DNA of 16,995 bases from a virus: the UHGV virus genome UHGV-1578121; one strand, written 5' to 3'. Shown piece after piece: positions 1,416 through 16,995 of the stretch. The notes below the pieces were generated by a model that ran no database searches, was not told where the DNA came from, and saw only the letters and a list, made by a program, of their open reading frames with translations. How positions within the stretch are numbered: position 1 is the first letter of the stretch; the number at the start of each line of letters is the position of its first letter. Position numbers and translations under genes: made by a program.

Positions 1416-1619
1416 TTACGCGGCGTTGTTGCGAGAAGCATCAATACGCTGGTTAATCCATTCGTCGACTTCACTTTCAATAAAAGCCACGGAGCGGGGA
1501 CCAATTTTTACCGGTTTAGGGAAGCGCCCCAGGCTGATCAGGCGATAAATCCATGCGCGACCGTAACCAGTACGGCGCATAACCTCAGAAAGACGGATGA
1601 ATGAATTGTTATTAGCCAT
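1416..1619 (-). CDS. alpA: AlpA-family phage transcriptional regulator / excisionase-like HTH protein (67 aa)
   Basis: Translation MANNNSFIRLSEVMRRTGYGRAWIYRLISLGRFPKPVKIGPRSVAFIESEVDEWINQR shows the hallmark IRL..V...TG......IY.......FP.P...G.RSV.W.E.EVDEWI pattern of AlpA/CP4-57 regulators; sits downstream of a P4-type integrase. Confidence 0.8.
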   Translation of the reverse strand: MANNNSFIRLSEVMRRTGYGRAWIYRLISLGRFPKPVKIGPRSVAFIESEVDEWINQRIDASRNNAA

Positions 1620-2261: not shown

Positions 2262-3476
2262 TTATGCACATACACTAAACTTGCCGTGCACCACGTTTCC
2301 GCCCTGTTCCAGTGAGTCCATATAGTCGGCGTACCACTGGAGCATCTCCCGCCGTCCGTCCAGATATTGCGCGTGATTGTATGTGCCACGGATCGAGTTT
2401 TTATCGACGTGCGCCAGCTGCGTTTCTATCCACGCGGAGTTATAACCCTGCTCATGCAAAATTGTACTCATGGTATGCCGGAACCCATGACCAGTAACGC
2501 GCCCAGCATAGCCAATACGACGAATAAGCACGTTCATCGCCATTTCACTCATCGGTTTACTGTGCTGTATTCGACCAGGGAAAATAAACGGATACTGCCC
2601 CGTCATGTGTTTCAGTTGTTCCAGAATAGCAATCGCCTGTTCTGAAAGCGGCACGCAATGAGGACGGCGCATTTTCATTCGTTCTTTCGGCACTTCCCAC
2701 AGACGATTATCAAAATCAATCTCCTGCCACTCTGCCTGCCGCAATTCACCCGGACGGAGTCCTGTAAGAATCAACAATCGCATACCCAGCTTGACGATCT
2801 GGCTTCCGGTGTACGTATTAAAAACGCGGAAAAATTCCGGTAGCTCATCAACTTTCAGATACGCGTAATGCTCTTTTTTGTGTGGTGCAAATGCGCTTGC
2901 CAGATCAGGAGCGGGGTTATATTCAGCGCGTCCGGTAATTATTGCGTACCGAAACACTTCGCCACATCGCTGGCGAACCTTACGCAATTTTTCAGTTGCG
3001 CCACGGTCATTAAGACGGGATAGAACCGCGAGCAATTCCATCGGCTTAATCTCTGCGATGGGCCTACCTCCAATGTACGGAAAAACGTCTTTTTCAAACG
3101 TCTCTATCATTTCCTCTGCATATGAGGGAGACCATCGGTCCAGGCGTTTTTCATACCACTCACGGGCGATCACCTCAAAGGTGTTACCGCATTTGTTCGC
3201 CTGTTCTCGCTTTTGGGCCTTTCTGACCTCACTCGGATTAACTCCACCAGCGATAAGCCTTTTGGCTTCATCCCTTGCCGTCCTGGCATCAGAAAGGGAC
3301 ACCTCAGGATAGACACCCAGCGACAACATTTTGGGCTTGCCTGCAAACCTGTATCGCAATCGCCAGCCCTTCGAACCGTTCGGCTCAATGAGTAACGAAA
3401 GCCCGTTGCCGTCATTGAGTGTATAGGCTTTCTCTTTTGGCTTCGCGCGGCGGATAGCAAGGTCTGAAAGCAACAT
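2262..3476 (-). CDS. int: P4-type tyrosine integrase (site-specific recombinase)
   Basis: Translation begins MLLSDLAIRRAKPKEKAYTLNDGNGLSLLIEPNGSKGWRLRYRFAGKPK (classic P4-integrase N-terminus) and ends with catalytic motifs HGFRHT...LAHVDKNSIRGTYNHAQY; start placed at the internal ATG 3476 (GGGGG upstream) rather than ORF-track 3515, which has no RBS. Confidence 0.9.
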   Translation of the reverse strand: MLLSDLAIRRAKPKEKAYTLNDGNGLSLLIEPNGSKGWRLRYRFAGKPKMLSLGVYPEVSLSDARTARDEAKRLIAGGVNPSEVRKAQKREQANKCGNTFEVIAREWYEKRLDRWSPSYAEEMIETFEKDVFPYIGGRPIAEIKPMELLAVLSRLNDRGATEKLRKVRQRCGEVFRYAIITGRAEYNPAPDLASAFAPHKKEHYAYLKVDELPEFFRVFNTYTGSQIVKLGMRLLILTGLRPGELRQAEWQEIDFDNRLWEVPKERMKMRRPHCVPLSEQAIAILEQLKHMTGQYPFIFPGRIQHSKPMSEMAMNVLIRRIGYAGRVTGHGFRHTMSTILHEQGYNSAWIETQLAHVDKNSIRGTYNHAQYLDGRREMLQWYADYMDSLEQGGNVVHGKFSVCA

Positions 3477-3533
3477 GTGTATAGCCCCCAAAAAACGATT
3501 TTGTCCTATACGCATTACTATACACTTCTGTGT

Positions 3534-3632
3534 GTAGATTTAGGTAGATGACTGTAGACGGTTGTAGACGAGGAAAAACGCTGGAGGCCTTGATATTCGG
3601 GGGATTGGTAGACTTTAGTAGACGTTGGTAGA
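3534..3632. repeat. array of seven direct GTAGA(C/T) repeats phased at 10 bp (3534, 3544, 3554, 3564 and 3608, 3618, 3628); candidate integrase arm-type or accessory-protein binding sites
   Basis: Read directly: tGTAGAttta gGTAGAtgac tGTAGAcggt tGTAGAcgag ... gGTAGActtt aGTAGAcgtt gGTAGAtgtt; lies between the integrase start and the tRNA-like core. Confidence 0.6.
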
Positions 3633-3640
3633 TGTTTGTT

Positions 3641-3662
3641 TGGAGCGGGCGAAGGGAATCGA
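3641..3662 (-). other. 22-nt partial tRNA 3' end (T-loop to CCA), tRNA-Gly-like; att core/junction direct repeat
   Basis: Reverse complement of 3641-3662 is TCGATTCCCTTCGCCCGCTCCA = T-loop remnant + T-stem 3' strand + acceptor 3' strand + discriminator + CCA; sequence further 5' does not continue as a tRNA. Assignment to tRNA-Gly(CCC) is from memory and unverified. Confidence 0.55.
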
Positions 3663-3747
3663 GGAAACCCATAATAACCTGCTGTAAAATAAAGATTTTG
3701 TGATCAATCATAGGTAACTGATTACGTGATAATAGAGGATCATTATC

Positions 3748-4968
3748 GTGTCGATCAAGAGCCAAGCATACTTATTTAAAAGAAAAGATGGGATCTGGAT
3801 GTTTCAGATTTTTGTTCCTAAATACTTACGTCATCTTTACCCTTATAAGTTGTGGAGAAAAAGCACATCTACACGAGATCTGAATGAGGCGAGAAGATTC
3901 AGAAACCATCTATTATTAGAATGGGAGGAACTAAAGCGGAAACATAATCCTGATAACCCCGAAAGGAGGTTACAACAAGCTATTGAATCCTTACATTCAG
4001 AGGCAAGGGCCAATAAAAACACGCAAAGAGCCGTAAAACGCGGTTATGCACCGCCTTCCCTGTGCCTAATACGTGACGAATACGCCGAATGCTACAGAGA
4101 GCGTCGTTCATACTCAACACTACAGAAATCAGCAAGGGCCGTTGAGCTATTTTTACAAAGCATTCAGAAAGATGATATTCATATTGAGAAAATAGGCAGA
4201 CGGCTTGTAACAGTATTCTTAGATGACCAGAAGCAACGAGGAGCAGCCGATCAATCTCGTCAAAACTGGCTTACATGCTTAGGATCGCTCTATGAATTTG
4301 CTAAACGCCGTTATGACGGAATACCAGACAGTAACCCTTTTCACGGTCATAACCTCGAAGCACGTCGCACAATCGAGAGTTATCAACCGTTTACACCTGA
4401 ACAAATGCAAAAGCTACTTGATGCAGCGGAGCCGGAGATCAGAAATATTATCTTAATGGGCTTGTTTTCAGGGGCCAGATTAGACGAACTGGCAAGCCTG
4501 AAAAAGTCAGAGATTGTAACTGTGGAAGGAATACGCTGTTTTTATATCAGCAAGAGTAAGACTAAGGCAGGGATCAGACACGTTCCGATACATTCGAGAC
4601 TATCGATTATTGTCGATGAATATTTAAATCATAATTATGGTGAATATTTGTTCCCTCATTCAAATAAAGTAAAAAGAACCGACGGTAAGAAAGGCCCGTT
4701 CTATTCTCAAGCGTTCTCACGTTTACGTCGTAGCGTCTTGCCAATCGCTACAAATAGACAATGCTTTCACAGCTTGCGCGGGATGTTTATCACTTGTCTT
4801 GATCGTGCAGGAGTGCCTGAACAGCGGATCGGAGCCATTACCGGACATACAGAGCAGATAGCTAAAACAGAAGCCTTTCGCACCTACTCACAAGGGGCAA
4901 GCATTCCAGAATTAGCTGAATATGTAGAATTAGTAAAATATGAATTAAATATTGATTTTAAGGCGTAA
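3748..4968 (+). CDS. tyrosine recombinase / phage-type integrase (406 aa), second integrase, divergent from the P4-type one
   Basis: GTG start with AGAGGA upstream; C-terminal catalytic region contains HSLRGMFIT (H-x-x-R) and GHTEQIAKTEAFRTYSQ (His and Tyr); visibly more AT-rich codon usage than the left integrase. Confidence 0.8.
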   Translation: MSIKSQAYLFKRKDGIWMFQIFVPKYLRHLYPYKLWRKSTSTRDLNEARRFRNHLLLEWEELKRKHNPDNPERRLQQAIESLHSEARANKNTQRAVKRGYAPPSLCLIRDEYAECYRERRSYSTLQKSARAVELFLQSIQKDDIHIEKIGRRLVTVFLDDQKQRGAADQSRQNWLTCLGSLYEFAKRRYDGIPDSNPFHGHNLEARRTIESYQPFTPEQMQKLLDAAEPEIRNIILMGLFSGARLDELASLKKSEIVTVEGIRCFYISKSKTKAGIRHVPIHSRLSIIVDEYLNHNYGEYLFPHSNKVKRTDGKKGPFYSQAFSRLRRSVLPIATNRQCFHSLRGMFITCLDRAGVPEQRIGAITGHTEQIAKTEAFRTYSQGASIPELAEYVELVKYELNIDFKA

Positions 4969-4988
4969 AACAACGCCATAAACGTAAT

Positions 4989-5020
4989 AAAAAGGCTTCC
5001 TTGTAATGGGAGCCTCTTAT
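4989..5020. terminator. bidirectional intrinsic terminator between convergent genes
   Basis: aaaaaGGCTTCCttgtaatGGGAGCCtcttatat: imperfect GC stem flanked by an A-run on one side and a T-rich run on the other; sits between the stop of the plus-strand integrase (4968) and the stop of the minus-strand 613-aa gene (5076). Confidence 0.5.
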
Positions 5021-5075
5021 ATGCTTAATTCCTTACAAGAGTGTTTTAGATTGTGATTAAATATTCTCTTTATCA

Positions 5076-6917
5076 TTAACTTGGTGCTTGCCCAGACAGA
5101 GCCGCCAACGTGAAACTACGTTCAAAATCTTGTTGGATACTTCCCACTTTGTAATCGAGGTATGATCCAAGCTGACTACCATCAGGGGCGATATTCACAT
5201 CCACCTTGCTTTCCGGCACGTTTACGACGATGTTCGGTGCATACGTCATAGATGGGGTAGTGTTCAGATCACGGCTAACGTTCTGTTTCAAGGATTGCAC
5301 GTTATCGGATGGGCTGGAATAGTTCTGAATTGCAGTGCCGCCAGTTGTTGGCTTGTCTTCCGTGCCAGGGATAGGTGATAAGCCTAAAGCACTACGACCC
5401 CAATCAACCATACCCCCTACAAACGAGTCCTTATAATACATACCGGACGAATCCAATTGCTCGTGCTTATTCTCTGGATTGATTTTTTGATATGCAGCAG
5501 TGATCCACGATACAGCACCAGCAAAGGCGCTCATCATTTCAGCCGTTGAGCTTCCAAGTTCTCTAAACAGAGGATTGAGATCTTTCAGCATTTGCGCCCA
5601 CTCTTCACCAGCTTTCGCGTCGAATTCTTCACCGAATCCCGTCATGATAGCTTTCTTACTACCTTCCCAGGCCATATTCATATTGGCTTGCACTGCCTGG
5701 AGACGTTCAGCAGCGTCCAGATCCGCTTGTGTATAGGTGGCATTGGCTTTTTGCATCTTAACGATGGTTTTGTTTAGCTCTTCACCGTTACGACTGAAAG
5801 CACCACGGAAATATTGTAAATCATTTCCAAGATCTTCAAGAATATGACCTATTTCCTGATCAGAGAGTCCACGGCGTTCTCCTTCTTTCACTACAGCGCC
5901 CAGGAAACCTAATGGATCAGTCTGGAAACCTTTAACCTGTTCAGGACTCCAACCATATTTATTAAGGATGTTATCAACGGCACCGTTACCGCCAGCCCAG
6001 CGACCTTTTTTAGCGTCCCATTTGGTATTCCCTACGGATTCACCTAAACGCTCTTGAACGTCTTTAAGGTTATCTTGACGTTGAGAGACGGAACTATCAA
6101 CACCGTGTTCTAAGCCGTACTGGTTGAGTGCTAACAGGGCGTTAGTGTTGACGTTTACAGCCTTTGCCTTGCGGTTAGTGTCTGTGATCTTGCTTGCCTG
6201 ATCGGTTACGGTATTGAATATCGCAGCACCGCCGAGAGTAGCAGCAGTGAGAGCAGCACCGCCCGCCATTGCACCTACACTACCGCCCATATGACCGCCT
6301 TTAAGCTGTTTAGCCATATGTGGATACTTGCCACCATCAGCCGCCACCTGGCGAGCTTTTACAGCAGCCGCACGGCGTTCTAACGTGATACGATCACGGA
6401 TCAGGTGATTCATCTTAGCCTGACTAATAACGCCTTTCTCATACGCTGCCGTTTGTGCTTTGATGTACTGTAATGTTTTGTAGTATTGGGCGGAGTCCAT
6501 ACCGTCACCCATACGCCCCTTCTTGATGCCTTCAAGCTGTCTAAAAGCTTGCTGGCGTTTAATCTCTGCTTTCTCTGCTATCGTTGCTTTAGCGCGGATC
6601 TGTTTATCGGCAGCTATCGCGGCTTTAGCCTTCGCTTTAGCTTCTGCCTTTGCCACCTTATCAGCATTCTTCTTATCTGTTTGAGCTTGCTTGTCTGACG
6701 CTTTAGCATCAGCTTTAGCCTGTGCAGCTTTACGGGCCTTTACCAGATCGTTAGCATCGTCTATAGCTCGTTTAGCCTTCTTCCCTTTCAATGTTGGATT
6801 GGTTAGGTTTTCCATTTCTTTCTGAAATTTCTTACCTGCATCGCGTGCTTTCTGTAATGATGCAAAATCAACTTTAAAAACGACGCGGTTCGTTAAGGTT
6901 GAGATGTTCAACTCCAT
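5076..6917 (-). CDS. large Lys/Ala-rich coiled-coil protein with a Gly-rich hydrophobic segment; tape-measure-like / virion structural protein (613 aa)
   Basis: AAGGAAAA RBS before ATG 6917; N-terminal KAxAKA-type low-complexity coiled coil, then GGHMGGSVGAMAGGAALTAATLGGAAIF glycine-rich hydrophobic stretch as seen in tail tape-measure proteins; function inferred from composition only. Confidence 0.4.
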   Translation of the reverse strand: MELNISTLTNRVVFKVDFASLQKARDAGKKFQKEMENLTNPTLKGKKAKRAIDDANDLVKARKAAQAKADAKASDKQAQTDKKNADKVAKAEAKAKAKAAIAADKQIRAKATIAEKAEIKRQQAFRQLEGIKKGRMGDGMDSAQYYKTLQYIKAQTAAYEKGVISQAKMNHLIRDRITLERRAAAVKARQVAADGGKYPHMAKQLKGGHMGGSVGAMAGGAALTAATLGGAAIFNTVTDQASKITDTNRKAKAVNVNTNALLALNQYGLEHGVDSSVSQRQDNLKDVQERLGESVGNTKWDAKKGRWAGGNGAVDNILNKYGWSPEQVKGFQTDPLGFLGAVVKEGERRGLSDQEIGHILEDLGNDLQYFRGAFSRNGEELNKTIVKMQKANATYTQADLDAAERLQAVQANMNMAWEGSKKAIMTGFGEEFDAKAGEEWAQMLKDLNPLFRELGSSTAEMMSAFAGAVSWITAAYQKINPENKHEQLDSSGMYYKDSFVGGMVDWGRSALGLSPIPGTEDKPTTGGTAIQNYSSPSDNVQSLKQNVSRDLNTTPSMTYAPNIVVNVPESKVDVNIAPDGSQLGSYLDYKVGSIQQDFERSFTLAALSGQAPS

Positions 6918-6935
6918 AATATTTTCCTTTATCTC

Positions 6936-7151
6936 TTATTTATTCTGTTTTAATACGTAATATTGCACTGCTTCCATAGCGGAGCAGCCCGTAGCAAAAA
7001 TTCTTTGACGTACAGCGGTATTGCTGATCCCTAAAAACTTACATACTTGTGAGATATTTAGAATATCTTCCGGTAAGGTGGAAACAGCTTTCAAGATTTC
7101 AACTGGATTGTTATTTTGTGTGTTCATGGTTTTCTCACTTTTATTCGACAT
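6936..7151 (-). CDS. small HTH DNA-binding protein (71 aa; possibly starts at internal Met, ATG 7127)
   Basis: Contains ISQVCKFLGISNTAVRQRI, a typical helix-turn-helix of excisionase/AlpA-like small regulators; no clear SD at either candidate start. Confidence 0.45.
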   Translation of the reverse strand: MSNKSEKTMNTQNNNPVEILKAVSTLPEDILNISQVCKFLGISNTAVRQRIFATGCSAMEAVQYYVLKQNK

Positions 7152-7265
7152 TAGAAAACAAAAAGGGCAAAGAGATCAGAGCATATTTTGCGTATATGGT
7201 TAATCCCTTCGCCCTTATTGCCTGTTTTATTTCCAGTCGCACAGGAAACGACTATTAACGCTTTA

Positions 7266-8294
7266 TTACGATACAGTGATCTGTACGGTGAAGCCTACGC
7301 CGTGGTTTACAACCATCTGGCTATTCTCGGTAACTACGTTTACAGCGTCGTTACGTGCTGGGCTAAATGCATAGCTGTAATATTCAGCCGCGCCAGAATT
7401 CAGCAGGTCGAACGTTGAAGACGGAGCGCCGTAGATGTTCTGGTAAACGTTAGAGCCTTTAGCGAACTTCGGAACAGCAACCGCATCAGAAGTCATATGA
7501 GCCAGCAGCAGCGGATCGGTGACTTTGATGATATCAATGTTAGTGCCTGGAATAGTGAAGGTAGTCACACCTGGCAGCAGGGAGCGCACGCTATAAACGA
7601 TGTTTGCGTCATCGGTAGGGCTTGCATACTGGAACGCGTTAACCATGCCAGCACTATAACGGATAGCGTTGAAAGCGGCAGGTTTACAGAATACTACGAT
7701 ACGTTCTACAGCCGCTGCCTGACTTTGGGCCTTAGTGATAACGTCTGTATGCAATTGATCGAATTGCTGGAACACCGTAGAAGGTGTGGTGCTTGATGCG
7801 TCGATGGTTGCAGTCAGAGGAACAGCACTAAACAGATCGCCCCACTGGATCAGCACATCATCAGTTTTAGGGGTGTAAGTTTTACCACTGAACAAGGAAG
7901 CGGCTAATATGCTTTCTTTAGTACGCTGGAAAGCGATGTGATGCTTAGCAACATATTCCGCGTAGATATCTGTCAGAGTTTCTTCAACGGTAGCGCCTGG
8001 CTTACGTTTGCCTTGTACGTCTTGCGGTTTAATCACATCTTCACGCAGGAAGTAAGGGATTTCTACCAGCCATTCTTTACCCTGTTCACGCTTAGTTACG
8101 TTGTGTTCAGAAGAGAAACGAGAGGTTTCTTTGTTGAACAGAGATTCGTTAGTTTCTACCAGTTGGCTAACAGCCACTTTATGAGAACTCACGCCTACTG
8201 GATCAGTAAAGTCGAGAGAAGTTAACAGGAAGTTACGAGAGTCATGCAGACTAAACAGCGGAGCCAGATCGACGGATTCATTACCAATAATCAT
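7266..8294 (-). CDS. major capsid protein, lambda gpE-like (342 aa)
   Basis: AAGGAA RBS; length 342 aa vs 341 for lambda E; collinear local resemblances recalled against lambda E (APLFSLHDS vs DPLFLRLFF; ERIVVFCKPAAF vs VNIIVFDPKGWALF); immediately preceded by a ~120-aa gene in the D position. Confidence 0.55.
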   Translation of the reverse strand: MIIGNESVDLAPLFSLHDSRNFLLTSLDFTDPVGVSSHKVAVSQLVETNESLFNKETSRFSSEHNVTKREQGKEWLVEIPYFLREDVIKPQDVQGKRKPGATVEETLTDIYAEYVAKHHIAFQRTKESILAASLFSGKTYTPKTDDVLIQWGDLFSAVPLTATIDASSTTPSTVFQQFDQLHTDVITKAQSQAAAVERIVVFCKPAAFNAIRYSAGMVNAFQYASPTDDANIVYSVRSLLPGVTTFTIPGTNIDIIKVTDPLLLAHMTSDAVAVPKFAKGSNVYQNIYGAPSSTFDLLNSGAAEYYSYAFSPARNDAVNVVTENSQMVVNHGVGFTVQITVS

Positions 8295-8312
8295 TATGTT
8301 TATTCCTTTATA

Positions 8313-8684
8313 TTAAGATGTGAATACAGTGTTAAAACCAGCCATTTGGAAGCCTTTAGCAGCCAGAGCAGCAATAGCGGCTTCTTTAATAGCGCCTTCA
8401 ACATTCAGAGCATCAGACTTGATGCAAACCAGTCCGGCATTGCTACGCAGCACGTTAACGGTTTTAGCGTCGCCAGCGGATACCGCATCAGACACAACCA
8501 TAAGAACATCGCCGCCGCTTACATATTCAGCGCCGTCACTGGTAATCAGATCGCCGCATTCAACATCAACCGCCAGATCAACGGTAAAAGATTGCACACA
8601 ACCGAACTCATCAGTTGCATATGAAACGATATCGGTAAATGATTTGCGAACTGGAAACAGATCGCTCATATTAATAATAGCCAT
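8313..8684 (-). CDS. putative head decoration protein, gpD-like (123 aa)
   Basis: AAGGAAAC RBS; size and position directly upstream of the E-like capsid gene mimic the lambda D-E pair; Ala/Gly/Val-rich; no confident motif match. Confidence 0.4.
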   Translation of the reverse strand: MAIINMSDLFPVRKSFTDIVSYATDEFGCVQSFTVDLAVDVECGDLITSDGAEYVSGGDVLMVVSDAVSAGDAKTVNVLRSNAGLVCIKSDALNVEGAIKEAAIAALAAKGFQMAGFNTVFTS

Positions 8685-8686
8685 AA

Positions 8687-8902
8687 TTAATAGTTTCCTT
8701 TTTTGGATTGTTTGATTTGTTCTGCTTTTGCTTTAATCAGATCCTGCATAGTAGGTTTCTGTTCATCAGCAGACTTAAAAAGCTTATCACAATGTTTTTT
8801 CAATTCTGTTGGAGTGATCCCCAACATATAAGCCGTAGCATTGAATGTTTCATCAGTGATAATCAATTCTTCGTTACCATTCTTTAGAATTAGATTTTGC
8901 AT
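8687..8902 (-). CDS. hypothetical small protein (71 aa from internal ATG; ORF-track version 8687..8929)
   Basis: Stop overlaps the D-like start region (4-nt spacing); the second ATG has a weak AAAGG upstream, the first has none. Confidence 0.45.
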   Translation of the reverse strand: MQNLILKNGNEELIITDETFNATAYMLGITPTELKKHCDKLFKSADEQKPTMQDLIKAKAEQIKQSKKGNY

Positions 8903-8950
8903 TGTTGCTTTACCTTTTATTCCTAACATTCTTGTTTAGTGCTGATAAAA

Positions 8951-8980
8951 TAAAACCGGAAGGGAAAAGCTTCCGGCTTT
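8951..8980 (-). terminator. rho-independent terminator (minus-strand orientation favoured)
   Basis: Perfect 7-bp stem CCGGAAG/CTTCCGG with 7-nt loop; on the minus strand the stem is followed by TTTTATTTTAT; located immediately upstream of the capsid gene block. Confidence 0.6.
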
Positions 8981-9783
8981 ATGAATACAACATTGAAGGA
9001 TGTTATAGAGTAGTGTTACTAAATCGCAGTTATATGCACTTAAAGAGGTAGGACATATAAGAATAAGATTTCTTATTGTTATAAGCCCTTGAGGGGTGAA
9101 TAACAGGCTTACAGAGGAGTAGGCGCTTAGGAGGTCGCCCCCTTGGAAAGGAATCATTGTAAACCTGTTATTCGTGCGATGGCTAATCGCTGTCTTTCTC
9201 AATGTGGATGCATCGATCAGACTATTCAGGAATCACCTATTAACTTTCAAACCTTTTGGATTCTCATTTTAATAGGAGGCGGTGCCGAGATGATTTCGGG
9301 GATCATCCACGCTTTCGCGTTCTAAGATTGACACCTTAATAAACACCAACAAAAACATATTCAGCTCATTGTTGTCAAGAAACAATATACACCGTTATTT
9401 GTTTATACGGGGTTTATAGAACACTGAAAAACAGTGCTTTTAGAAAGTGTTTCGTGTTTCATGCTTCATAGTTGATTAAAAGATGAGGGGCCAAGTCCAT
9501 AGCCCCTGCATTCTCAAATACACAATATGATAAAGCAATAAAGAATAAGGAAAATAAAATGAAACTATTTTTTAAGAGGAAACAATTTCTAAAAATCACT
9601 GTAAATGGAAAGCGAGGTAGGTTAGATAGGGCGCAACCCCTTGAGGTCTACCCCGCTTTCATGTAGATTAGAATAGGGAGAAGAATTAACACCAGCTAAC
9701 TCCAATTTCCATTCAATACTCTTCATTTATTATTCTAACAGATTTGTCAGTAGAAGTCAATATTTAAATCAATAAAAATTAAT

Positions 9784-9876
9784 TTATTTTTCGTTTGTTA
9801 ATTCCCACTTACCGAACATGCAGTTGCCATCTAAAACAATAGTTTGTTCGTTACCGTTATCATCGGTTACGTGCAT
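9784..9876 (-). CDS. hypothetical small protein (30 aa), translationally coupled
   Basis: ATG overlaps the stop of the upstream 38-aa ORF (TGATG); reads MHVTDDNGNEQTIVLDGNCMFGKWELTNEK; below the ORF-track size cut-off, found by manual translation. Confidence 0.3.
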   Translation of the reverse strand: MHVTDDNGNEQTIVLDGNCMFGKWELTNEK

Positions 9877-9992
9877 CAGGCGGCCTGAGTGTCGAGCTTA
9901 CCAGTGTAGATCTTGCCTACTGTGAAACAATGGCACGATATGCCTTCTTCTGTAAGTGCCAGTAAACGGGCACGTTTGGTTTTTACTGTCAT
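9876..9992 (-). CDS. hypothetical small protein (38 aa), translationally coupled
   Basis: ATG overlaps the stop of the upstream 102-aa ORF (ATGA); reads MTVKTKRARLLALTEEGISCHCFTVGKIYTGKLDTQAA; found by manual translation. Confidence 0.3.
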   Translation of the reverse strand: MTVKTKRARLLALTEEGISCHCFTVGKIYTGKLDTQAA

Positions 9993-10297
9993 TGGTTAAC
10001 CTTATCGATTAGTTCTGCTATGAGTGGTTGAAGATCAGCTACCGCTTGTTGCATGATTTCAGTGGTGTCATTGATCACGATAATCAGGTTACTCAGATCA
10101 TCAGCTTCAACCTGTGCACCTTCGGATTGTTCGCACGCTGCAATAAGTAGTTGCAATGCTTCCCGCGTCGATTCCAGATTAATAACCGCCTGTGTGATGG
10201 TCAGTTCGCTTGGATATTCCATCGCTGCGTTAACTGCTTTCTGCAAGTCAATAACAAGGTCCATCATTTGGATAGTTACGTTGTGTACTTCGCTCAT
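9989..10297 (-). CDS. hypothetical highly acidic alpha-helical protein (102 aa)
   Basis: Provided ORF; strongly acidic composition (many D/E, few K/R); start overlaps stop of the upstream 70-aa ORF by 1 nt. Confidence 0.55.
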   Translation of the reverse strand: MSEVHNVTIQMMDLVIDLQKAVNAAMEYPSELTITQAVINLESTREALQLLIAACEQSEGAQVEADDLSNLIIVINDTTEIMQQAVADLQPLIAELIDKVNQ

Positions 10298-10509
10298 TAT
10301 GCCGCTTCCTCTAATTGTTGTTGTGCTTCACGAGCTTTAGTCAATGCAATCTGTAGCGGTATTCTGTAAGTTGCAATGCTGTCTACAACGTCATCCAGAG
10401 TTGCCAGATCGTTCTCTTCCTTTGCACGTTCAATAATATTTATAAAACATTCTGAAAGAAGCTTAAGATCATGAAAAGTGGTTGTCTCTAAAATTACTTT
10501 GTTAATCAT
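10297..10509 (-). CDS. hypothetical acidic helical protein (70 aa)
   Basis: Provided ORF; coupled to the downstream 102-aa ORF; ends with QQQLEEAA helical tail. Confidence 0.5.
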   Translation of the reverse strand: MINKVILETTTFHDLKLLSECFINIIERAKEENDLATLDDVVDSIATYRIPLQIALTKAREAQQQLEEAA

Positions 10510-10550
10510 TTTATTTTCCTTTTGTTAAGGGTTATATTCAGCCAACGCTG

Positions 10551-10931
10551 TTAATCGTCTATTTTTATTCTTTCAAGCATAAGTAACTCTGTCTCTCTTG
10601 CGCCTGCATACTGCAAACTATTAAGAGCCATGTAGCCACGAAAATGATTCATATCCTGGAAGCCTAAACACTGCCACCTTTTAAGAAGGCTGCTATCAAT
10701 GATTGTTGTTTTGCGTGGGCGTGGATTGAAGTAAACACCATCCATACTTTGAATGATTGATAATTCTTCGTCTGTCAATTCTGGGCTTGGTTCTTCAAGT
10801 ATAAAGATCAATTCCTCGCCTGGTTGTGCATCATGCTCATAATTATATTTGCGAGGATTGTTTAACGCATACTGATCACATGCTTCGCCAATAGCCATTA
10901 TTACGTTTTTCTTGCTTTTTTGCTTGCTCAT
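10551..10931 (-). CDS. hypothetical protein (126 aa)
   Basis: Provided ORF with strong AGGGGA RBS about 7 nt upstream of the ATG; no recognisable motif. Confidence 0.55.
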   Translation of the reverse strand: MSKQKSKKNVIMAIGEACDQYALNNPRKYNYEHDAQPGEELIFILEEPSPELTDEELSIIQSMDGVYFNPRPRKTTIIDSSLLKRWQCLGFQDMNHFRGYMALNSLQYAGARETELLMLERIKIDD

Positions 10932-11043
10932 TGCTTCCCCTTCGTTTTGGTTTTCTTGTTGCAGTGTTAAAAAAGGAAGCGATCATGAATACTAAGAAAA
11001 ATATTAAGCTTTCCATTGTTTCACCCTTCAAGATGTTTGATAG

Positions 11044-11064
11044 TTGTTTGTTGTTTGTTGTTTG
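11044..11064. repeat. tandem heptamer repeat (TTGTTTG)x3 in an intergenic gap
   Basis: Read directly: ttgtttg ttgtttg ttgtttg tttt between the 72-aa and 126-aa minus-strand genes. Confidence 0.6.
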
Positions 11065-11066
11065 TT

Positions 11067-11285
11067 TTAAGCTACAGAGTCGATTCTGAATGCTTTCATA
11101 TGAGTTTTTGTATACTGCAATAATCCTTGTTTACTTAGGTTATCGAGAAGAGCATATAAAAATTGCACACCTACCACACCGGAAAACTCAGAATCAAACA
11201 GAATCATTCCCGTTCTTTCCCGTAAATATTGCAGAAAGATTTCTTGTGAAAATTCGCCATCGAATATGATCACAGTGTCACCCAC
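11067..11285 (-). CDS. hypothetical protein (72 aa); GTG start with no RBS, may be the C-terminal part of a frameshifted gene together with 11270..11527
   Basis: Provided ORF; first codon is GTG with an in-frame stop immediately upstream; overlaps the 85-aa ORF by 16 nt in another frame. Confidence 0.35.
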   Translation of the reverse strand: MGDTVIIFDGEFSQEIFLQYLRERTGMILFDSEFSGVVGVQFLYALLDNLSKQGLLQYTKTHMKAFRIDSVA

Positions 11286-11527
11286 AATTCAAACGGGCTT
11301 ATCTCAAGCAGTCTGAACGTTTGATTATTCACAGCTTCATACTGAATTACCCCAAAATGGCTTAGGTGATTTAGCCAATGCTGCGTGTGTTCTTTACTGT
11401 GCGGTAACTCCTGAAAGCTGATAATCGCGGGTAGCTCATAATTGCTATCAGCAAGCTGTTTTGCCAGTGTGTAGCCGCTTTCTGTAATTTCGAATGTTCG
11501 TTTGTTTAATGTCAGGTTGTATTTCAT
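11270..11527 (-). CDS. hypothetical protein (85 aa); possibly the N-terminal part of a frameshifted/fused gene
   Basis: Provided ORF, tightly packed after the 221-aa gene; 3' end overlaps the next ORF. Confidence 0.45.
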   Translation of the reverse strand: MKYNLTLNKRTFEITESGYTLAKQLADSNYELPAIISFQELPHSKEHTQHWLNHLSHFGVIQYEAVNNQTFRLLEISPFELWVTL

Positions 11528-11539
11528 TTTTTATTCTCC

Positions 11540-12205
11540 TTAAAATGGTATTGAGTCATAGATTTCACTTTCTTTTCTCAGGGCTATCATCAGTGCATTA
11601 AAAGCATCATCTTCAAGAATTATCCTCTTCGAGGTCAGTGCACGTTTTATAAAATTTTCTGTTTCTTCTTGCATAGGCTTTTGGCTGTCTATGGAAATAA
11701 GCCATGTAAAAAGATCAGATTGTTCCGTGATTTCTGCCTGTGTTTCCTGCTCAATAGAGTGTGTCGCTTCTAACGGTTCCTGTGTTTCAGGTGCAGGCTG
11801 TTCTACGTTTACAGAGGTTTTTACGTCTTCCGGTGGTGTGATGTGTGCATCTGTAAAGGGTAATGCTTTATAGAGTGATGTTTGCCCGTCCCGTGCCTCT
11901 ACAGAAAGAACACCCATATCAATAAACATATTTATAATATTACGCACCTGACGATCACTAACCATTCCAATATTAGCTAATGTTTTTTGATTGGCGTAAC
12001 ATTCTTGCCCTTGTTCATTGAACCCAGCTACGTAACTGTAGATTTCAACGGCTGGAAGTGTCGCGGTGTATTCCTTACCTGACGGTGAGAACCACTTTTT
12101 AAACATCTTCAGCCATTGTTCAACTACTACATATGTTTGTTTACTATCTTTCTTATTGAGGCATTGCGCTTTTGCTTCGGCAATTGTTTTGGTGTTTTGG
12201 TTCAT
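11540..12205 (-). CDS. putative replication-initiator-like / winged-HTH DNA-binding protein with acidic C-terminal half (221 aa)
   Basis: Strong AAGGAGG RBS; N-terminal region YSYVAGFNEQGQECYANQKTLANIGMVSDRQVRNIINMFIDMGVL resembles the N-terminal DNA-binding domain of lambda-O-type replisome organisers (recalled pattern); C-terminal part E/Q/T-rich. Confidence 0.45.
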   Translation of the reverse strand: MNQNTKTIAEAKAQCLNKKDSKQTYVVVEQWLKMFKKWFSPSGKEYTATLPAVEIYSYVAGFNEQGQECYANQKTLANIGMVSDRQVRNIINMFIDMGVLSVEARDGQTSLYKALPFTDAHITPPEDVKTSVNVEQPAPETQEPLEATHSIEQETQAEITEQSDLFTWLISIDSQKPMQEETENFIKRALTSKRIILEDDAFNALMIALRKESEIYDSIPF

Positions 12206-12329
12206 TTAGTTCCTCCTTTGTAAGGACTGTAATTAGTAATTCATTAACAAGTTTTGGAATTGATTTCCCTTCTGCCTTTGCACGATTTAACAACGCGTTA
12301 TAAGTTGCAGAATCAAAATTAATATTCAT
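12153..12329 (-). CDS. putative ribbon-helix-helix-like small regulator (58 aa), overlaps start of the 221-aa gene
   Basis: Manual translation MNINFDSATYNALLNRAKAEGKSIPKLVNELLITVLTKEE: beta-strand then helix pattern typical of RHH/CopG-like proteins; strong AAGGAG RBS; 53-nt out-of-frame overlap with the next gene lowers confidence. Confidence 0.35.
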   Translation of the reverse strand: MNINFDSATYNALLNRAKAEGKSIPKLVNELLITVLTKEELNEPKHQNNCRSKSAMPQ

Positions 12330-12352
12330 TTGGCTTTCTCCTTCTCCTGTTA

Positions 12353-12535
12353 TTATTCTTTCTCTACTTCTGCCTTACGCAGTTCATCAATAATTTTTAG
12401 TGCATCGTCAAAGCATTTTTCACGCTCTGGATAACCACAGCGCCGCGCTGTGTTCCTGTTCATCCTTACTTGATGTCGTGTTAGCTCACCTTTTTTAAAT
12501 GCCTCTACGACGTGTTCCGGTGTATACCATTTCAT
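12353..12535 (-). CDS. hypothetical small basic protein (60 aa), first gene of the leftward early operon
   Basis: Provided ORF with strong AAGGAG RBS 6 nt upstream; directly downstream of the long non-coding region. Confidence 0.5.
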   Translation of the reverse strand: MKWYTPEHVVEAFKKGELTRHQVRMNRNTARRCGYPEREKCFDDALKIIDELRKAEVEKE

Positions 12536-13404
12536 AAAAACTCCTTATTTAGATAAAAGAAAAACACACCTTGCAGCCTAACGGCTCAAAGTGCAGTGTT
12601 CTGTGATTTGATTATTTAGATGGAGAGAGATGTTTCTCCCCTCCCTACTTACAATACTACATAACGGCGGCTTTGTCAACCCTCTTTTATAAAAAATTTG
12701 ATCATTTTCAATTTCTTATAATTTTTCTTAGCTTTTTGTGCTGCCTACTCTGGTACAATTCTTCCCTGTTGTCTAAAACGCTCTCAATCGCACTCTGACG
12801 GGGTTTTGATAAAAATAATACATTCCCTTATGTAGAGGTTGTTTATCTCGTCAGAGGCTTATTTAAGGGGCTTATTTTTGATTTATCAGATGATGGAAAG
12901 ATGGTGGATAGATAAACTCTGATTTCAGACATCTTATAAAATACCTGCAAAGTTCTCAGAAGCTCTGTAACGAGCTAATCTATTACCGCTAAGGTGTTTC
13001 CCTTACATTACCCTGTTTAGCTCGCCTACGGCTTGATTTAAGCGGTAGAATCTTATTTAACCTTCAACTACAAAAACCATTCTTTCTTTTTTGTTGTTGG
13101 TTGTTTTGTCATGTTATGCGTTAGCATCCCCAAAGGGTAACGCGACACTAACAACCATTCGCTTACGCTCAGGTTATTGCACAAGTAAATTTCAATCGTT
13201 AGATGGTAGTTAGTTAATTATCGTTCTGCGCACAGCGCAAGACTATTAGCCATACGCAAGTCGTAGGCTATTTGCACATAGTAGATTACATATTCGTTGT
13301 GAGCGGAAAGCGAACATAGATCAGCTAACTACTAACAAAAAACAAAAAACAAAAACTATCTGTTATGACAAGCATCAGTCTAACTTGTGCAAGGTTCTGG
13401 CGAA

Positions 13405-13473
13405 TGCCAATAGATTAAGGGATAGTCGAAGACTCCCTAACGGGTATCCCTATAATTATTCTTTAAAAGATAA
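13405..13473. repeat. copy 1 of a ~70-bp direct repeat containing a nested hairpin (AGGGATA...TATCCCT) and a TATAAT hexamer
   Basis: tgccaatagattaagggatagtcgaagactccctaacgggtatccctataattattctttaaaagataa read directly; near-identical copy at 13588-13657. Confidence 0.7.
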
Positions 13474-13518
13474 AAGAATTTATAAAAGATAGTTTAATTG
13501 TAGTTTAATTATAGTATT

Positions 13519-13571
13519 GTAGGAACTCATTTCCTGGGTAGGTAGGAACTCATTTCCTGGGTAGGTAGGAA
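13519..13571. repeat. 23-bp tandem repeat x2.3 (gtaggaactcatttcctgggtag), each unit with internal palindrome AGGAA-ctcat-TTCCT
   Basis: Read directly; lies between the two copies of the 70-bp direct repeat. Confidence 0.7.
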
Positions 13572-13587
13572 ACCCGCACTATACGAT

Positions 13588-13657
13588 TGCCAATAGATTA
13601 AGGGATAGTCGAAGACTCCCCTAACGGGTATCCCTATAATTATTCTTTAAAAGATAA
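13588..13657. repeat. copy 2 of the ~70-bp direct repeat (one extra C relative to copy 1)
   Basis: tgccaatagattaagggatagtcgaagactcccctaacgggtatccctataattattctttaaaagataa read directly. Confidence 0.7.
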
Positions 13658-14334
13658 TTATAGTTAGTTGTTAGTTTTATTATTAGTATTATTAAAGTAA
13701 TCTTATTGTCAGTCATCGTGACCGACACCCCCCCACACAACATCTGTGCAATGATCTTCTAAAAGTGTTTCTTGCTATCAAAAATTAAAAAAACAGGCTT
13801 AAATTCAAGATTAATTGATGATTAATCCCTATGTAATTCCATACTAAAAATTCAATGAAAAGTAGATTCAAAGTGCAATTCTTACTTTCTTCACTTTTAC
13901 ATTATCATCAGCAAAGCCTTATGTAATGCGGCATATAGCGTATCACTGCAAAATTGTTGCTCAATAAACGTTCTACCATTTGTTGAACGAATGTTCACTC
14001 GTGCACATCTCAAAGAGAATAATTATTTATCATACAATTCCATAATAAGAATTATTATCACTTATAATGCAATACAACCCAGATTCGATACACTTTAGCA
14101 AAGTGTATTCTGTAACCTACTGATCTTTATATACTCAGGCATATATAGACCATTTATCGCTATTTATTGGCTTTTTTTCATCTGCCGAAAATAAATTTCT
14201 TGACAAGACAGATCATTTGTGAGCGGCTTGCATAAAATAAATTTACTTATAAATCAACAAGATATTTCATATTTGTGCCTGCATCAGATCGGGAGGCTTG
14301 ATCTTTGTGTTCAACGATGGTGACGGACGCACCT

Positions 14335-14420
14335 AAATTAAATCGGTTTTAATCGCCTTTAATACCTTTTAATCAGTCTTAATCACCTTTTAATAGCCCT
14401 TTAATCATTTTTGATCATTT
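14335..14420. promoter_or_regulatory. array of eight TTTTAATC-like repeats phased at 10-11 bp (helical repeat): candidate curved DNA / iteron / protein-binding array upstream of the short recombinase gene
   Basis: aatcggtttt aatcgccttt aatacctttt aatcagtctt aatcaccttt taatagccct ttaatcattt ttgatcattt read directly with near-constant 10-bp period. Confidence 0.6.
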
Positions 14421-14517
14421 AGTGCTCTCAACCATAAAACGTATCGTGCAACATATTGAAAATGATCATTTTATGATCAAAACTACTTTCATTGAAACGA
14501 ATAAGGAGAGTATAAAG

Positions 14518-15096
14518 ATGAAAGGTATTAGCCAAGCCCTCAAGAATGTAGACGAGGTAAAAACAGTAGCAGCAGAGCTACAGCGCAATAGTAAAACCAA
14601 CCTGTTTTATTGCTTATGGGTGTTTATGTATGAAAGCGGGTTGCGTGTCTCTGACGTACTCAAGCTAAAATATCAGGATGTTGAGGGGCAATCTCATTTG
14701 AAGATAAAGCAGGAGAAAACCGGAAACGTAGTAAGGCCAAAAGTTACCCCCGCCATGTTGTCAGTGGTGGCACAACGCAAGGCAGAGCAAACGAAGATGC
14801 CTGTAGCTACAGATTTTATTTTCAGTGCTGGCACATTACGCAGTAAAGGCGAAGCCGTAACCCGTAACACGGTATTCACTGAATTTGGGAAGATGGGACG
14901 TAGAGCCGGATTCTCTAATGTGGGATGCCATACGCCACGTAAAAGTCGGGGCCGTGTGATGTTTGATGCAGGGGTAGCTATAGAGACAATAGCCCATTTC
15001 CTGGGACAGACAGATCCGCGCTCTACTATGTATTACATCGGGTATGGTCAGGATGTGCAGGACGATTTAGCAGAGGAGTTTTCTTTAGAATGGTGA
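14518..15096 (+). CDS. short tyrosine recombinase, catalytic domain only, FimB/FimE-like (192 aa)
   Basis: Start moved to ATG 14518, which has AAGGAG 8 nt upstream (ORF-track start 14422 has none); motifs LFYCLWVFMYESGLRVSDVLKLKYQDV (box I Arg), CHTPRKSRGR (H-x-x-R) and LGQTDPRSTMYY (catalytic Tyr); size typical of invertase-type recombinases. Confidence 0.75.
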   Translation: MKGISQALKNVDEVKTVAAELQRNSKTNLFYCLWVFMYESGLRVSDVLKLKYQDVEGQSHLKIKQEKTGNVVRPKVTPAMLSVVAQRKAEQTKMPVATDFIFSAGTLRSKGEAVTRNTVFTEFGKMGRRAGFSNVGCHTPRKSRGRVMFDAGVAIETIAHFLGQTDPRSTMYYIGYGQDVQDDLAEEFSLEW

Positions 15097-15305
15097 TCCA
15101 AATTAAAAGCTTATTTGTGCTGACGTTGGCGCTATTGCCTGTCCTATCGAATGCCGGACAGATAACAATGGTCAACCCACAGGAAGAACAGACGGAGAAT
15201 GGAAAAACGCTGTGCACGTATCAGAACAGCAATTATCTGTTCACTTACGTAACTAAGGGGAAATGCCCTTATGCAAAAACATTTGACACTTCCGCCAAAG
15301 AATAA
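15090..15305 (+). CDS. small secreted protein (71 aa precursor) with predicted signal peptide and two Cys in the mature part
   Basis: N-terminus MVIQIKSLFVLTLALLPVLSNA followed by GQ looks like a Sec signal peptide with AxA-type cleavage site; ATG overlaps the recombinase stop (ATGGTGA), suggesting coupling. Confidence 0.45.
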   Translation: MVIQIKSLFVLTLALLPVLSNAGQITMVNPQEEQTENGKTLCTYQNSNYLFTYVTKGKCPYAKTFDTSAKE

Positions 15306-15310
15306 CGATT

Positions 15311-15730
15311 TTAACGGGATTTTGGATAAATGCTGTTTCTGCAATTAATGCAATACCAACTCGCGGAGTATTGACCAACGGCACGCGAAAAAACCATGTG
15401 TGTTTGCACCTTATCAACTTCAAAGCATTTGGGACAGTAGGCTGTTTCATCGCCTTCTTTCCAGTAAAGTCCATCTTTGAAAGTGAAGGTGTGCTTATCC
15501 TTTAGCTGCTCTTCAAGCTGCTTATTTTTCTGTTCAGCCTCAAAAAGAAGTGCTTGGGTTGTGATTACTTCCATCTTCACACTTGCAAGTTCGCTCATGA
15601 GGTTAGCAAGCTCAAGTTTAAGCGTTGCTTTATCAAGTTCGCCGCCATCATCAGCGAGCTTCTTTGCAATACCTACAGCTTTGTCAATGATACCTACAGC
15701 CGCCGCTGTACTTGCCAACACTCCAGACAT
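15311..15730 (-). CDS. hypothetical coiled-coil protein with C-terminal CxxC...CxxC zinc-ribbon-like motif (139 aa)
   Basis: Provided ORF; RBS TTAGGGGCAAT-ATG; C-terminus CPKCFEVDKVQTHMVFSRAVGQYSASWYCINC; N-terminal half predicted helical. Confidence 0.55.
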   Translation of the reverse strand: MSGVLASTAAAVGIIDKAVGIAKKLADDGGELDKATLKLELANLMSELASVKMEVITTQALLFEAEQKNKQLEEQLKDKHTFTFKDGLYWKEGDETAYCPKCFEVDKVQTHMVFSRAVGQYSASWYCINCRNSIYPKSR

Positions 15731-15752
15731 ATTGCCCCTAATTTTAACAAGT

Positions 15753-16388
15753 TCACTTTATAAAAGCTAAAGCCCTAAGAACGGTTTTTAACCGCGTTAC
15801 CTGCTCAGGCTTTTCAAGTTCATCCAAATTAACATTAATTTTATCTAAACAGATGGCTATACGTGACATAACCTCGCCATGAATCTGCTTCAAACCTTCG
15901 CCATATTGAGTGGCAATATGGTAAGTCTGTTCTAAATTAAAACGATGGATATCTTTCTGCGTTTCATGAAATATGGTTTGAAGTTTAGCTAAGTCCTCTA
16001 AAACCTGATTATTCATTCTGAAAGTATCAACCAGACTCCTTGCTGAGCCATAACAAATAACAATTGCCTTCATTGTCTCTTCATTAACAGAAGTTAATGC
16101 AAAAGAGTTGCTTTCATAGAATGAGAAATAATTTTGAGTCAACGGAAAGATGCTTTCAAAAGGTTTACCACCTTCATAATTTTCAAGAGAATCGTAAATT
16201 CTGGCTTTATAAAGTTCCAGAAGCGTTTCGACTTCTGCTTTTATTCCAATCAAGACACTCTTTTGCTTATCCTTTGCTTCATTAAATGAAGCTCTGTCTT
16301 GCCTACGTCCATCGATCAGAGTACCCCACAGGGTGAACAATCCCCCTATCAAGGCACCAACTAAACCAGAAATCAGTTCACTTCCCAT
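15753..16388 (-). CDS. hypothetical membrane-anchored protein (211 aa from ATG 16388; ORF-track version starts at TTG 16403)
   Basis: RBS TTAGGGGGCAAC-ATG; N-terminal hydrophobic helix SELISGLVGALIGGLFTLWGTLI followed by a soluble domain; no recognised motif. Confidence 0.55.
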   Translation of the reverse strand: MGSELISGLVGALIGGLFTLWGTLIDGRRQDRASFNEAKDKQKSVLIGIKAEVETLLELYKARIYDSLENYEGGKPFESIFPLTQNYFSFYESNSFALTSVNEETMKAIVICYGSARSLVDTFRMNNQVLEDLAKLQTIFHETQKDIHRFNLEQTYHIATQYGEGLKQIHGEVMSRIAICLDKINVNLDELEKPEQVTRLKTVLRALAFIK

Positions 16389-16403
16389 GTTGCCCCCTAA
16401 CAA

Positions 16404-16964
16404 TCATTTTTGACGGCAATGATCCCATTGCTCAGTAGTCCTTGCAACTCGATCACTGATTGCAAAGTTATTCAGCAACGAATCATAAGCGTACACTTTG
16501 CTTTTATCATCTGCTGTCATCAACTTACCATCAGGTTTCAACTTTGGCGAAAGCAAGTATGTACCGTTTAAACGGTTAGCTTTGAAGCTATCAACATGCA
16601 ACGTTACTTCAGCACTTCCCAGCACACGTAAAGAACCTATTCTACCATTCTGTACTGCTGCAATAGCGTACTGACAGAGATAGGTTTTCGCAGTTGAAGC
16701 TGTGTTTTTTCCCTCAACCTTCGCTGATGGGGAATGTGAAGAGGAGTTAGGGATTGAACTATGAAGAGAAGATGATGGGTAAGAGTAAGAATAATTTTTA
16801 TACGCAGAAGAGGTGCTTGATCCAATCCTGCACGTTTTTCCAACCGCAATGCACGAATTACCGCATGGTATACCTTTCTTGCAGTTCTTCGCGTATGTAG
16901 AGAACGACAACCCAGCTAATAGAAATGTACCAATGGTTATCCTAACCAGCGAAGACCAACCCAT
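16404..16964 (-). CDS. hypothetical secreted protein (186 aa): signal peptide, Cys-rich knot (C-x5-C-x3-C-x6-C), Ser/Tyr-rich linker, C-terminal domain
   Basis: Strong GAAGGGGGGG RBS; N-terminus MGWSSLVRITIGTFLLAGLSFSTYA is signal-peptide-like; low-complexity SSTSSAYKNYSYSYPSSS linker. Confidence 0.55.
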   Translation of the reverse strand: MGWSSLVRITIGTFLLAGLSFSTYAKNCKKGIPCGNSCIAVGKTCRIGSSTSSAYKNYSYSYPSSSLHSSIPNSSSHSPSAKVEGKNTASTAKTYLCQYAIAAVQNGRIGSLRVLGSAEVTLHVDSFKANRLNGTYLLSPKLKPDGKLMTADDKSKVYAYDSLLNNFAISDRVARTTEQWDHCRQK

Positions 16965-16995
16965 AACCCCCCCTTCTTTTTAGTTTTTCCCTACA

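Follow-up and report, generated by a model that had tools for sequence, protein, structure and literature searches.

Introduction

Operators of recombination directionality factors (RDFs) generally consist of direct repeats spaced about one helical turn apart, which are bound cooperatively and accompanied by bending (PMC7498355). In KplE1, five TorI sites (GTTCG/GATCG/GTCCG) are arranged in two blocks overlapping PintS (Panis et al.; PMC2951348), and the arm-type sites of the integrase IntS are a separate, TAAA-containing motif (PMC2951348). Vis of P4 reportedly binds attP (EMSA and DNase I), bends it and forms higher-order complexes, and it is cited among the RDFs with direct-repeat operators spaced by one helical turn. 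A high-affinity IHF site lies in the P4 int regulatory region (PMC7286903).

Excisionases of the AlpA family are found in HPI (Hef), GIsul2 and P4. AlpA itself was first described as an activator of intA/slpA. For some Gram-negative PICIs it is described chiefly as a transcriptional activator, and one paralogue failed to promote excision of its own island (PMC11773190, PMC10111431). The effect of these proteins on the integrase gene differs between systems: int is repressed by TorI in KplE1 and by Vis in P4, and is reported to be activated in CP4-57, and RdfS stimulates intS transcription. In helper-embedded PICIs, a doubled motif (tgTGTATTGCa x2) is located at 81 ± 2 and 132 ± 2 bp from the attP centre; the study describing it left undecided whether the motif is bound by the Int arm domain or by AlpA, and reported no phased 10-bp array (PMC10111431).

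Here we describe an array of seven phased GTAGA repeats at the attachment junction of a P4-type island integrated at glyU, and compare it with these systems.

Results

The window, by which we mean the whole 16,995-nucleotide stretch that was analyzed (UHGV virus genome UHGV-1578121), represents an E. coli-type glyU (tRNA-Gly) locus with two mobile elements in tandem. The first, island A, encodes within the window an integrase, an AlpA-family protein and two Rha-domain proteins. The integrase is a P4-family tyrosine integrase (2262..3476, minus strand; Pfam Arm-DNA-bind_3, Phage_int_M and Phage_integrase, E 1e-25 to 7e-34) with 39% identity to P4 Int. Its ATG is at 3476, the same start as in RefSeq homologues, and use of the upstream ATG of the ORF at 3515 is unlikely. 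The att core (3641..3664, minus strand) comprises the last 24 nt of tRNA-Gly (glyU) in reverse complement and marks the junction of island A with the second element. It is identical to the 3′ end of the intact tRNA-Gly in the related locus L001, with divergence past 3664, and a repeat of about 19 nt of the core is present at the far island end in loci L001, L004 and L005. ARAGORN found no intact tRNA in the window, because the second element is inserted between the tRNA and island A, and Rfam returned no match anywhere in the window.

Sequences at least 99% identical to int and the array abut an intact tRNA-Gly in 144 complete E. coli genomes. The junction seen in the window is shared with one of 5426 complete E. 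coli genomes, at 90% identity, and the glyU satellite island is present in at least 258 of the 5426. Homologues of island A measure approximately 14 kb. Their gene content includes int, alpA, Rha/Ant/Bro, an Icd-like gene, DUF4222, a primase (DUF927) and SSB, which is the Gram-negative PICI/P4-like organization (PMC10111431). The minus strand at 1700-1740, in the interval separating the int-distal region from alpA, contains a perfect hairpin (CCACAACATG-ttttc-CATGTTGTGG) followed by TTTTTG, and a TTGACG −35-like hexamer comes after it; the hairpin looks like an intrinsic terminator shielding alpA from int read-through.

The second mobile element, element B, is stacked between tRNA-Gly and island A and occupies 3665-16995. 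It encodes a DUF6538-type tyrosine integrase (3748-4968, plus strand), a 613-aa protein of unknown function (5076-6917, minus strand) and a capsid-E protein (7266-8294, minus strand). In strain 08-00022 the second element extends for about 14 kb up to the intact tRNA. An AT-rich interval of about 1.9 kb in element B (12536-14421; GC 0.32-0.37) holds no ORF of at least 50 aa in any frame and has no Rfam match, and contains near-perfect direct repeats (13401-13473 and 13584-13657, a spacing of about 183 bp) as well as a perfect 23-bp tandem repeat (13519-13564). In the homologous element of strain 08-00022, a DEAD/DEAH helicase gene overlaps part of this interval. The AT-rich interval could be an origin/iteron region or the product of gene decay. 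The sole sigma-70-like match in 3400-3800 (TTGATC-18-TATTAT, 3729-3758, minus strand) also lies in the element B arm and is directed at the core and the int gene of island A; in the tandem arrangement it could be a source of int transcription, replacing read-through from tRNA-Gly.

The GTAGA repeats start at 3534, 3544, 3554, 3564, 3608, 3618 and 3628, all on the plus strand and in 10-bp steps inside each of two blocks. Block 1 (3533..3569, plus strand) consists of four phased sites, R1-R4 (TGTAGAT, GGTAGAT, TGTAGAC and TGTAGAC), and block 2 (3607..3633, plus strand) of three, R5-R7 (GGTAGAC, AGTAGAC and GGTAGAT), each with 10-bp spacing. The sequence of 3530-3640 reads tgtGTAGATttagGTAGATgactGTAGACggttGTAGACgagg...(35 nt)...ttgGTAGACtttaGTAGACgttgGTAGATgtttg. 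Block 2 is positioned 8-33 bp from the core, its end being separated from it by 8 bp. GTAGA occurs 38 times on both strands of the whole window compared with 24.3 ± 4.9 expected, a count reached in 0 of 200 shuffles. With one mismatch allowed, the two GTAGA blocks are the only 10-bp chains of this pentamer with at least three sites in the whole window; an exact GTAGA chain of three arose in 0 of 300 shuffles, and chains of at least three for any 5-mer numbered four in the window vs 0.03 per shuffle. Within island A, no other GTAGA-type phased chain that might mark an AlpA-regulated promoter was found, and the single other chain there is a spurious GTATAC chain directly past the int stop codon. 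Replication-origin iterons were considered for the array and rejected: the array is at the att junction, and in homologous islands about 5 kb separate it from the primase/DUF927 gene.

An earlier note on this DNA had listed these seven starts, 10 bp apart in two blocks, and its coordinates are exact; shuffled sequences fail to reproduce the pattern. It had also placed every site on the same face of the DNA, which holds approximately: at 10.5 bp per turn, the seven sites fall within −51 to +17 degrees of the first; the blocks are offset by 74 bp, which is not a multiple of 10, with an IHF-like element in between. The location that it gave, between the start of the P4-type integrase and the tRNA-like core, agrees with the int ATG at 3476 and the core at 3641-3664.

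The att arm contains a second motif, CTATAC(A/G)C, with two direct copies at 3506 and 3518 that form a 12-bp tandem pair and with inverted copies at 3477 and at 3419. We refer to the direct form as CTATACAC, whose reverse complement is TGTGTATAG, and to the inverted form as GTGTATAG. The proposed int-proximal arm-type pair spans 3505..3528 (plus strand; CCTATACGCATT / ACTATACACTTC, 12-bp tandem). The inverted copy GTGTATAG at 3477..3484 (minus strand) abuts the int start codon and is kept in all glyU variants, and a further inverted copy is located at 3419-3426. The pair itself is invariant in six glyU island variants, in one of which the Int N-domain is just 70% identical. The doubled motif TCTATACACATT x2 is found about 80 bp inside the far island end in loci L001 (6415-6438), L004 (1170-1193) and L005 (8172-8195); at the far end in L002, one copy is exact and the other differs by a single change. 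The int-proximal pair is about 132 bp from the core centre, and the far pair about 80 bp.

The array has no counterpart at the far end: GTAGA repeats are absent from the far arm of L001, L002, L004 and L005, and the array (3534-3632) lies between the arm-type pair (3505-3528) and the core (3641-3664) on one arm only. CTATACAC, in contrast, has copies on both attP arms. It also reproduces the P4 arm layout, whereas the GTAGA repeats, spaced by 10 bp and located in the interval from pair to core, do not. Because of this P4-like layout on both arms and the restriction of GTAGA to the int-proximal arm, we assign the arm-type sites to CTATACAC and not to GTAGA; the CTATACAC sites are probably the true arm-type sites of the integrase, as predicted from their arrangement.

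The relatives comprised 160 loci with integrase homologues, 80 from GTDB genomes and 80 from IMG/VR, which yielded 85 distinct int-tRNA spacers. The Int proteins of these spacers were 42-96% identical to P4 Int or 54-80% identical to the window Int, and the tRNA targets were Gly, Ser, Thr, Arg, SeC, Phe, Leu and Asn. The 85 spacers had a base identity of 0.42 at lag 10 vs 0.27 expected (z=31), with z=18 at lag 20, and lags 9 and 11 were at background; the controls, namely int coding sequence and the host DNA lying upstream of the tRNA, were flat at lag 10. When anchored at the tRNA end, NNGA(C/T) sites occurred at about −105/−95/−85/−75 and −32/−22/−12 in most loci, with a conserved TTGAT(A/T)TT...GGG between the blocks. 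Whatever the tRNA, its 3′ end and the integrase ATG were mostly 160-177 bp apart, a nearly constant spacing (loci L009-L168). A rigid seven-site template (0/10/20/30/74/84/94) was also tried and gave weak, misplaced fits across the relatives, a result of ±1-bp variation in the block offset and of spacer indels near int; it was replaced by the lag autocorrelation and the anchoring at the tRNA end.

Four classes of phased motif were distinguished among the relatives: TAGAC, CGGAC, TTGAC/G and TGGAC. The sole feature that sets the window apart from its relatives is that all seven of its sites are perfect, most relatives having 2-4 perfect sites. In other E. coli glyU variants, either R1, R3 and R6 are kept and R2 is one base off, or R2 and R6 are kept and R1 is one base off; R4, R5 and R7 are degenerate in these variants, and the middle site of block 2, AGTAGACGTT, is the same in every E. 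coli glyU relative. The earlier note would have been contradicted by absence of the array from relatives, and the opposite was observed, a family-wide 4+3 slot occupied mostly by 2-4 perfect copies. These data support the assignment of the GTAGA array to the attL intasome region. The 4+3/IHF scaffold appears to be general across P4-type integrase loci, which seems to be unstated in the literature consulted and would be a modest extension of it.

The proposed cognate RDF of island A is an AlpA-family winged-helix protein of 67 aa (1416..1619, minus strand; PF05930, 2.4e-20), 39% identical to P4 Vis. Its sequence matches the GIsul2 excisionase 8c3t and, weakly, TorI 1z4h. A structural model of moderate confidence (pLDDT 73) was closest to 8c3t (TM 0.70-0.80), TorI, RdfS and Pukovnik Xis, with weak Foldseek E-values. 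The element encodes its own small winged-helix protein, and the nearest solved relatives of this protein are excisionases.

The motifs were compared with the clades of both proteins, leaving out of the AlpA comparison those loci without AlpA within 4 kb and reading the motif classes of CP4-57 and KplE1 by eye. The arm motif followed the Int N-domain clade (14/0/3/45, Fisher 2e-11) and the phased motif followed the AlpA clade (40/0/2/7, Fisher 4e-7), although such Fisher values overstate the support because the independent non-TAGAC lineages are few (the P4 clade, L039, CP4-57 and KplE1). Against the Int clade the phased motif was mixed, TAGA and NGGA each occurring with both clades, so that GTAGA does not track the Int N-terminal domain in the way that CTATACAC does. 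Site sequence thus covaries with the RDF and not with the integrase, over a limited number of independent lineages. Two loci with weak arrays, L015 and L063, were classed against this trend. No AlpA gene was found within 4 kb in about half of the relatives, including all TTGAC-class loci; for the TTGAC class and several CGGAC-class loci (L024 and L027), none appeared within this distance even at E<50.

Loci in which the two proteins have different affinities are instructive. In L039 (Yersinia, tRNA-SeC), the Int N-domain is 65% identical to that of the window and 41% to that of P4, and the arms carry CTATACAC; its AlpA shares 64% identity with Vis, compared with 42% for the window AlpA, and its phased sites are CGGAC. 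L014, L041, L083, L142 and L147 mostly show the converse, with a window-like AlpA (65-72%) and TAGAC phased sites combined with ACCCCCA arms. In four of these five, the Int N-domain is nearer to P4 (61-67% vs 49-62% to the window), and L014 is a near-tie (58 vs 59%). Among E. coli glyU relatives, those with an Int N-domain 94% identical and an AlpA about 65% identical to the window proteins have lost R4, R5 and R7. Relative to islands with a different AlpA, block 1 is the most diverged segment, its identity being 70% where the int CDS has 86% and the arm-site block 91%. The recognition helix reads (S/G)(K/R)AW(I/L)Y where the sites are TAGAC, and SRSTIY (Vis) or ARATIY (CP4-57 AlpA) where they are CGGAC; in general form, ..AW(I/L)Y.. 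is paired with TAGAC, ..(S/A)TIY.. with CGGAC and ..TFIY.. (TorI) with CGAAC. The clean split, in which the arm motif tracks Int and the phased motif tracks AlpA, seems not to have been stated in the literature consulted and, judged from these sequence comparisons, would be a modest extension of it.

Between the blocks lies a central element, CTTGATATTCGGGGGATT (3589..3606), which differs by one base from the element at the same position of KplE1 attL, CTTGATATTCAGGGGATT. The family consensus here is TaTaa..GG.tTt, and the element holds the reverse complement of the IHF-like TATCAA. We infer an IHF-type bending site at 3589-3606. By scan, 3477-3640 contains no consensus sigma-70 promoter for int. 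By analogy with KplE1, where P'1 overlaps the −10, TATAGT in the arm-type site (3519-3524, minus strand) is a candidate int −10. Block 1 would then adjoin or overlap the −35 region, and the array would probably overlap the int promoter.

Discussion

We consider it likely that the seven GTAGA(C/T) sites form the operator array of the AlpA protein encoded at 1416-1619, acting as RDF on the int-proximal att arm of a P4-like, PICI-type glyU island. The features that point to this reading are the seven direct repeats one helical turn apart within their blocks, their position on a single arm between the arm-type pair and the core, the winged-helix protein encoded by the same island, the covariation of the sites with that protein, and the positional homology to experimentally mapped RDF sites, the TorI sites of KplE1 being in register with those of the window. 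Of the two identities that the earlier note had offered, arm-type sites of the integrase or excisionase/AlpA sites building an intasome, the intasome location and the AlpA option are retained and the arm-type option is given up.

On this basis we propose that AlpA would bind as one monomer per site, head to tail and one helical turn apart, and would form two short filaments of 4 and 3 monomers flanking the IHF-type bend at 3589-3606. Int would be held by its N-terminal domains on the CTATACAC sites (3477, 3506, 3518 and the far-end pair), and the bent arm would bring it to the core at 3641-3664, favouring attL x attR excision. Since block 1 abuts the presumed int promoter, binding of AlpA probably tunes int transcription too; this modulation would take place at block 1, and we leave its direction unpredicted.

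The array is located in an att arm beside a heterobivalent P4-type integrase, and arm-type sites are likewise short direct repeats, so binding by the Arm-DNA-bind_3 N-terminal domain of Int has to be weighed. We regard it as very unlikely. It is CTATACAC/GTGTATAG that matches the layout of the annotated P4 arm repeats, occupies both arms and is invariant across Int variants, and GTAGA is confined to one arm, the far arm being without it. The phased motif tracks the AlpA/Vis clade and not the Int N-domain clade, as L039 illustrates with a window-like N-domain but CGGAC sites. In KplE1, moreover, the sites in register with the array are TorI sites, and the arm sites of IntS are separate and contain TAAA. 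An array that is mainly a transcriptional operator and has no part in recombination architecture, AlpA either activating the int promoter through it (the proposal for CP4-57) or repressing it (the case of KplE1 and P4), would suit block 1, which abuts the likely int promoter, and would suit the regulatory record of this protein group, in which AlpA activates intA/slpA, TorI and Vis repress their own int genes and RdfS stimulates intS. It fits block 2 poorly: any plausible −35 is more than 85 bp downstream of this block, whose position, across spacers of different lengths, is fixed relative to the tRNA end and not to int, a placement that fits an intasome role. A purely transcriptional function is accordingly unlikely, but the operator and intasome roles are not exclusive, and the best explanation holds both.

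The binder might also be a host protein or an island protein other than AlpA, for instance one of the Rha/Bro family, given that in many relatives a phased array is present but AlpA is missing within 4 kb, and that two Rha-domain proteins are encoded in island A. This is highly improbable: elements of E. coli carry different phased motifs (TAGAC, CGGAC and CGAAC), which within the same host species argues against a common host factor; AlpA clade predicts the motif wherever AlpA is present; and the Bro/Rha zone is highly variable among islands that share the array. That the repeats are a functionless product of neutral tandem duplication or slippage is scarcely credible. The 7/7 perfection of a single lineage, compared with 2-4 perfect copies in relatives, is what such a process could leave behind, but site positions are kept in more than 80 diverged spacers in which the intervening bases vary, and the periodic signal, which peaks sharply at 10 and 20 bp exactly, is missing from the controls.

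If the array is the AlpA operator, the window provides a testable attL map of a widespread E. coli glyU satellite, with the core, a bend site, arm-type sites and RDF sites. A rule for P4-family islands, PICIs and pathogenicity islands is suggested as well, namely a 4+3 array around an IHF-like site in a nearly constant spacer of about 160-177 bp in most relatives. Such a rule would let RDF operators and RDF/island pairings be predicted from sequence, and would help decide what binds the doubled attP motif in helper-embedded PICIs. More tentatively, specificity may be set by a simple code that can be swapped, made up of the recognition helix of AlpA and the first two or three bases of the pentamer, with the scaffold and Int arms fixed; we think this possible but doubtful. 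Were it true, co-resident or tandem P4-type islands, such as the two elements at glyU here, could excise independently without cross-talk between their RDFs, and the 7/7 perfect array would represent operators recently re-optimized for a diverged AlpA.

Comparison with known systems

The architecture is a known one, represented by KplE1 TorI, P4 Vis, lambda Xis and 186 Apl, and no new kind of mechanism is revealed; to our knowledge, the array of the glyU island itself seems not to have been described. Lambda Xis (X1-X1.5-X2), 186 Apl and P2 Cox resemble the proposed array in being winged-helix/HTH RDFs that bind head to tail and cooperatively, bend one att arm and are often transcription regulators too (PMC7498355). 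They differ in belonging with other integrase subfamilies and in having single arrays without an IHF-like split and with unrelated sites. The doubled motif of helper-embedded PICIs corresponds to the arm-type sites of the window, at about 80 and 132 bp, and not to the GTAGA array. CP4-57 has phased (C/G/A)GGA(C/T) sites.

KplE1/CPS-53 attL resembles the window in running from the tRNA 3′ end to an outward-reading integrase with 10-bp pentamer repeats in two blocks, and its IntS has the same Arm-DNA-bind_3/Phage_int_M/Phage_integrase composition as the window Int. The two can be set in register, with CGATC/CGAAC/CGAAC on R2-R4 and CGGAC/CGGAT/CGAAC on R5-R7. TorI sites I3-I5 fall on R2-R4, published sites also lie at R5 and R7, and R6 corresponds to an unlisted in-phase CGGAT. 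The central element CTTGATATTC(A/G)GGGGATT is shared. Unlike the window, KplE1 uses the motif CGAAC/CGATC/CGGAC in place of GTAGAC and targets argW instead of glyU; five sites (3+2) are listed for it vs seven (4+3) here, and TorI has no Pfam AlpA-family match, unlike the window AlpA.

P4 shares with the window the integrase family and, in Vis, a PF05930 AlpA-family protein. It differs in its phased sites, (C/T/A)GGA(C/T/A), its arm motif, ATGCCCCCAA, and its target, leuX, and Vis differs from the window AlpA in having an N-terminal extension and in regulating late promoters too. No second phased CGGA array was obvious upstream of P4 vis, near the late promoters, where the annotated 10-bp 'ori type 2' repeats are an unrelated motif. 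The annotated arm repeats of P4 attP comprise a copy within int, an inverted copy where int starts, a 12-bp tandem pair before the core and a second such pair after it, and the window has the same order; the P4 coordinates are 3915-3926 (overlapping the int start, the counterpart of window 3477), 3942-3965 and 4151-4174. Between arm pair and core, P4 has phased sites CGGA at 3973, 3983 and 3993, AGGA at 4003, and TGGA/CGGA/TGGA at 4046, 4056 and 4066. Secondary citations, together with position, suggest that exactly these CGGAy repeats are protected by Vis. The 4+3 sites of P4 occupy the same slots as R1-R4 and block 2 (TGGAC/CGGAT/TGGAA), with a block offset of 73 bp vs 74 bp in the window.
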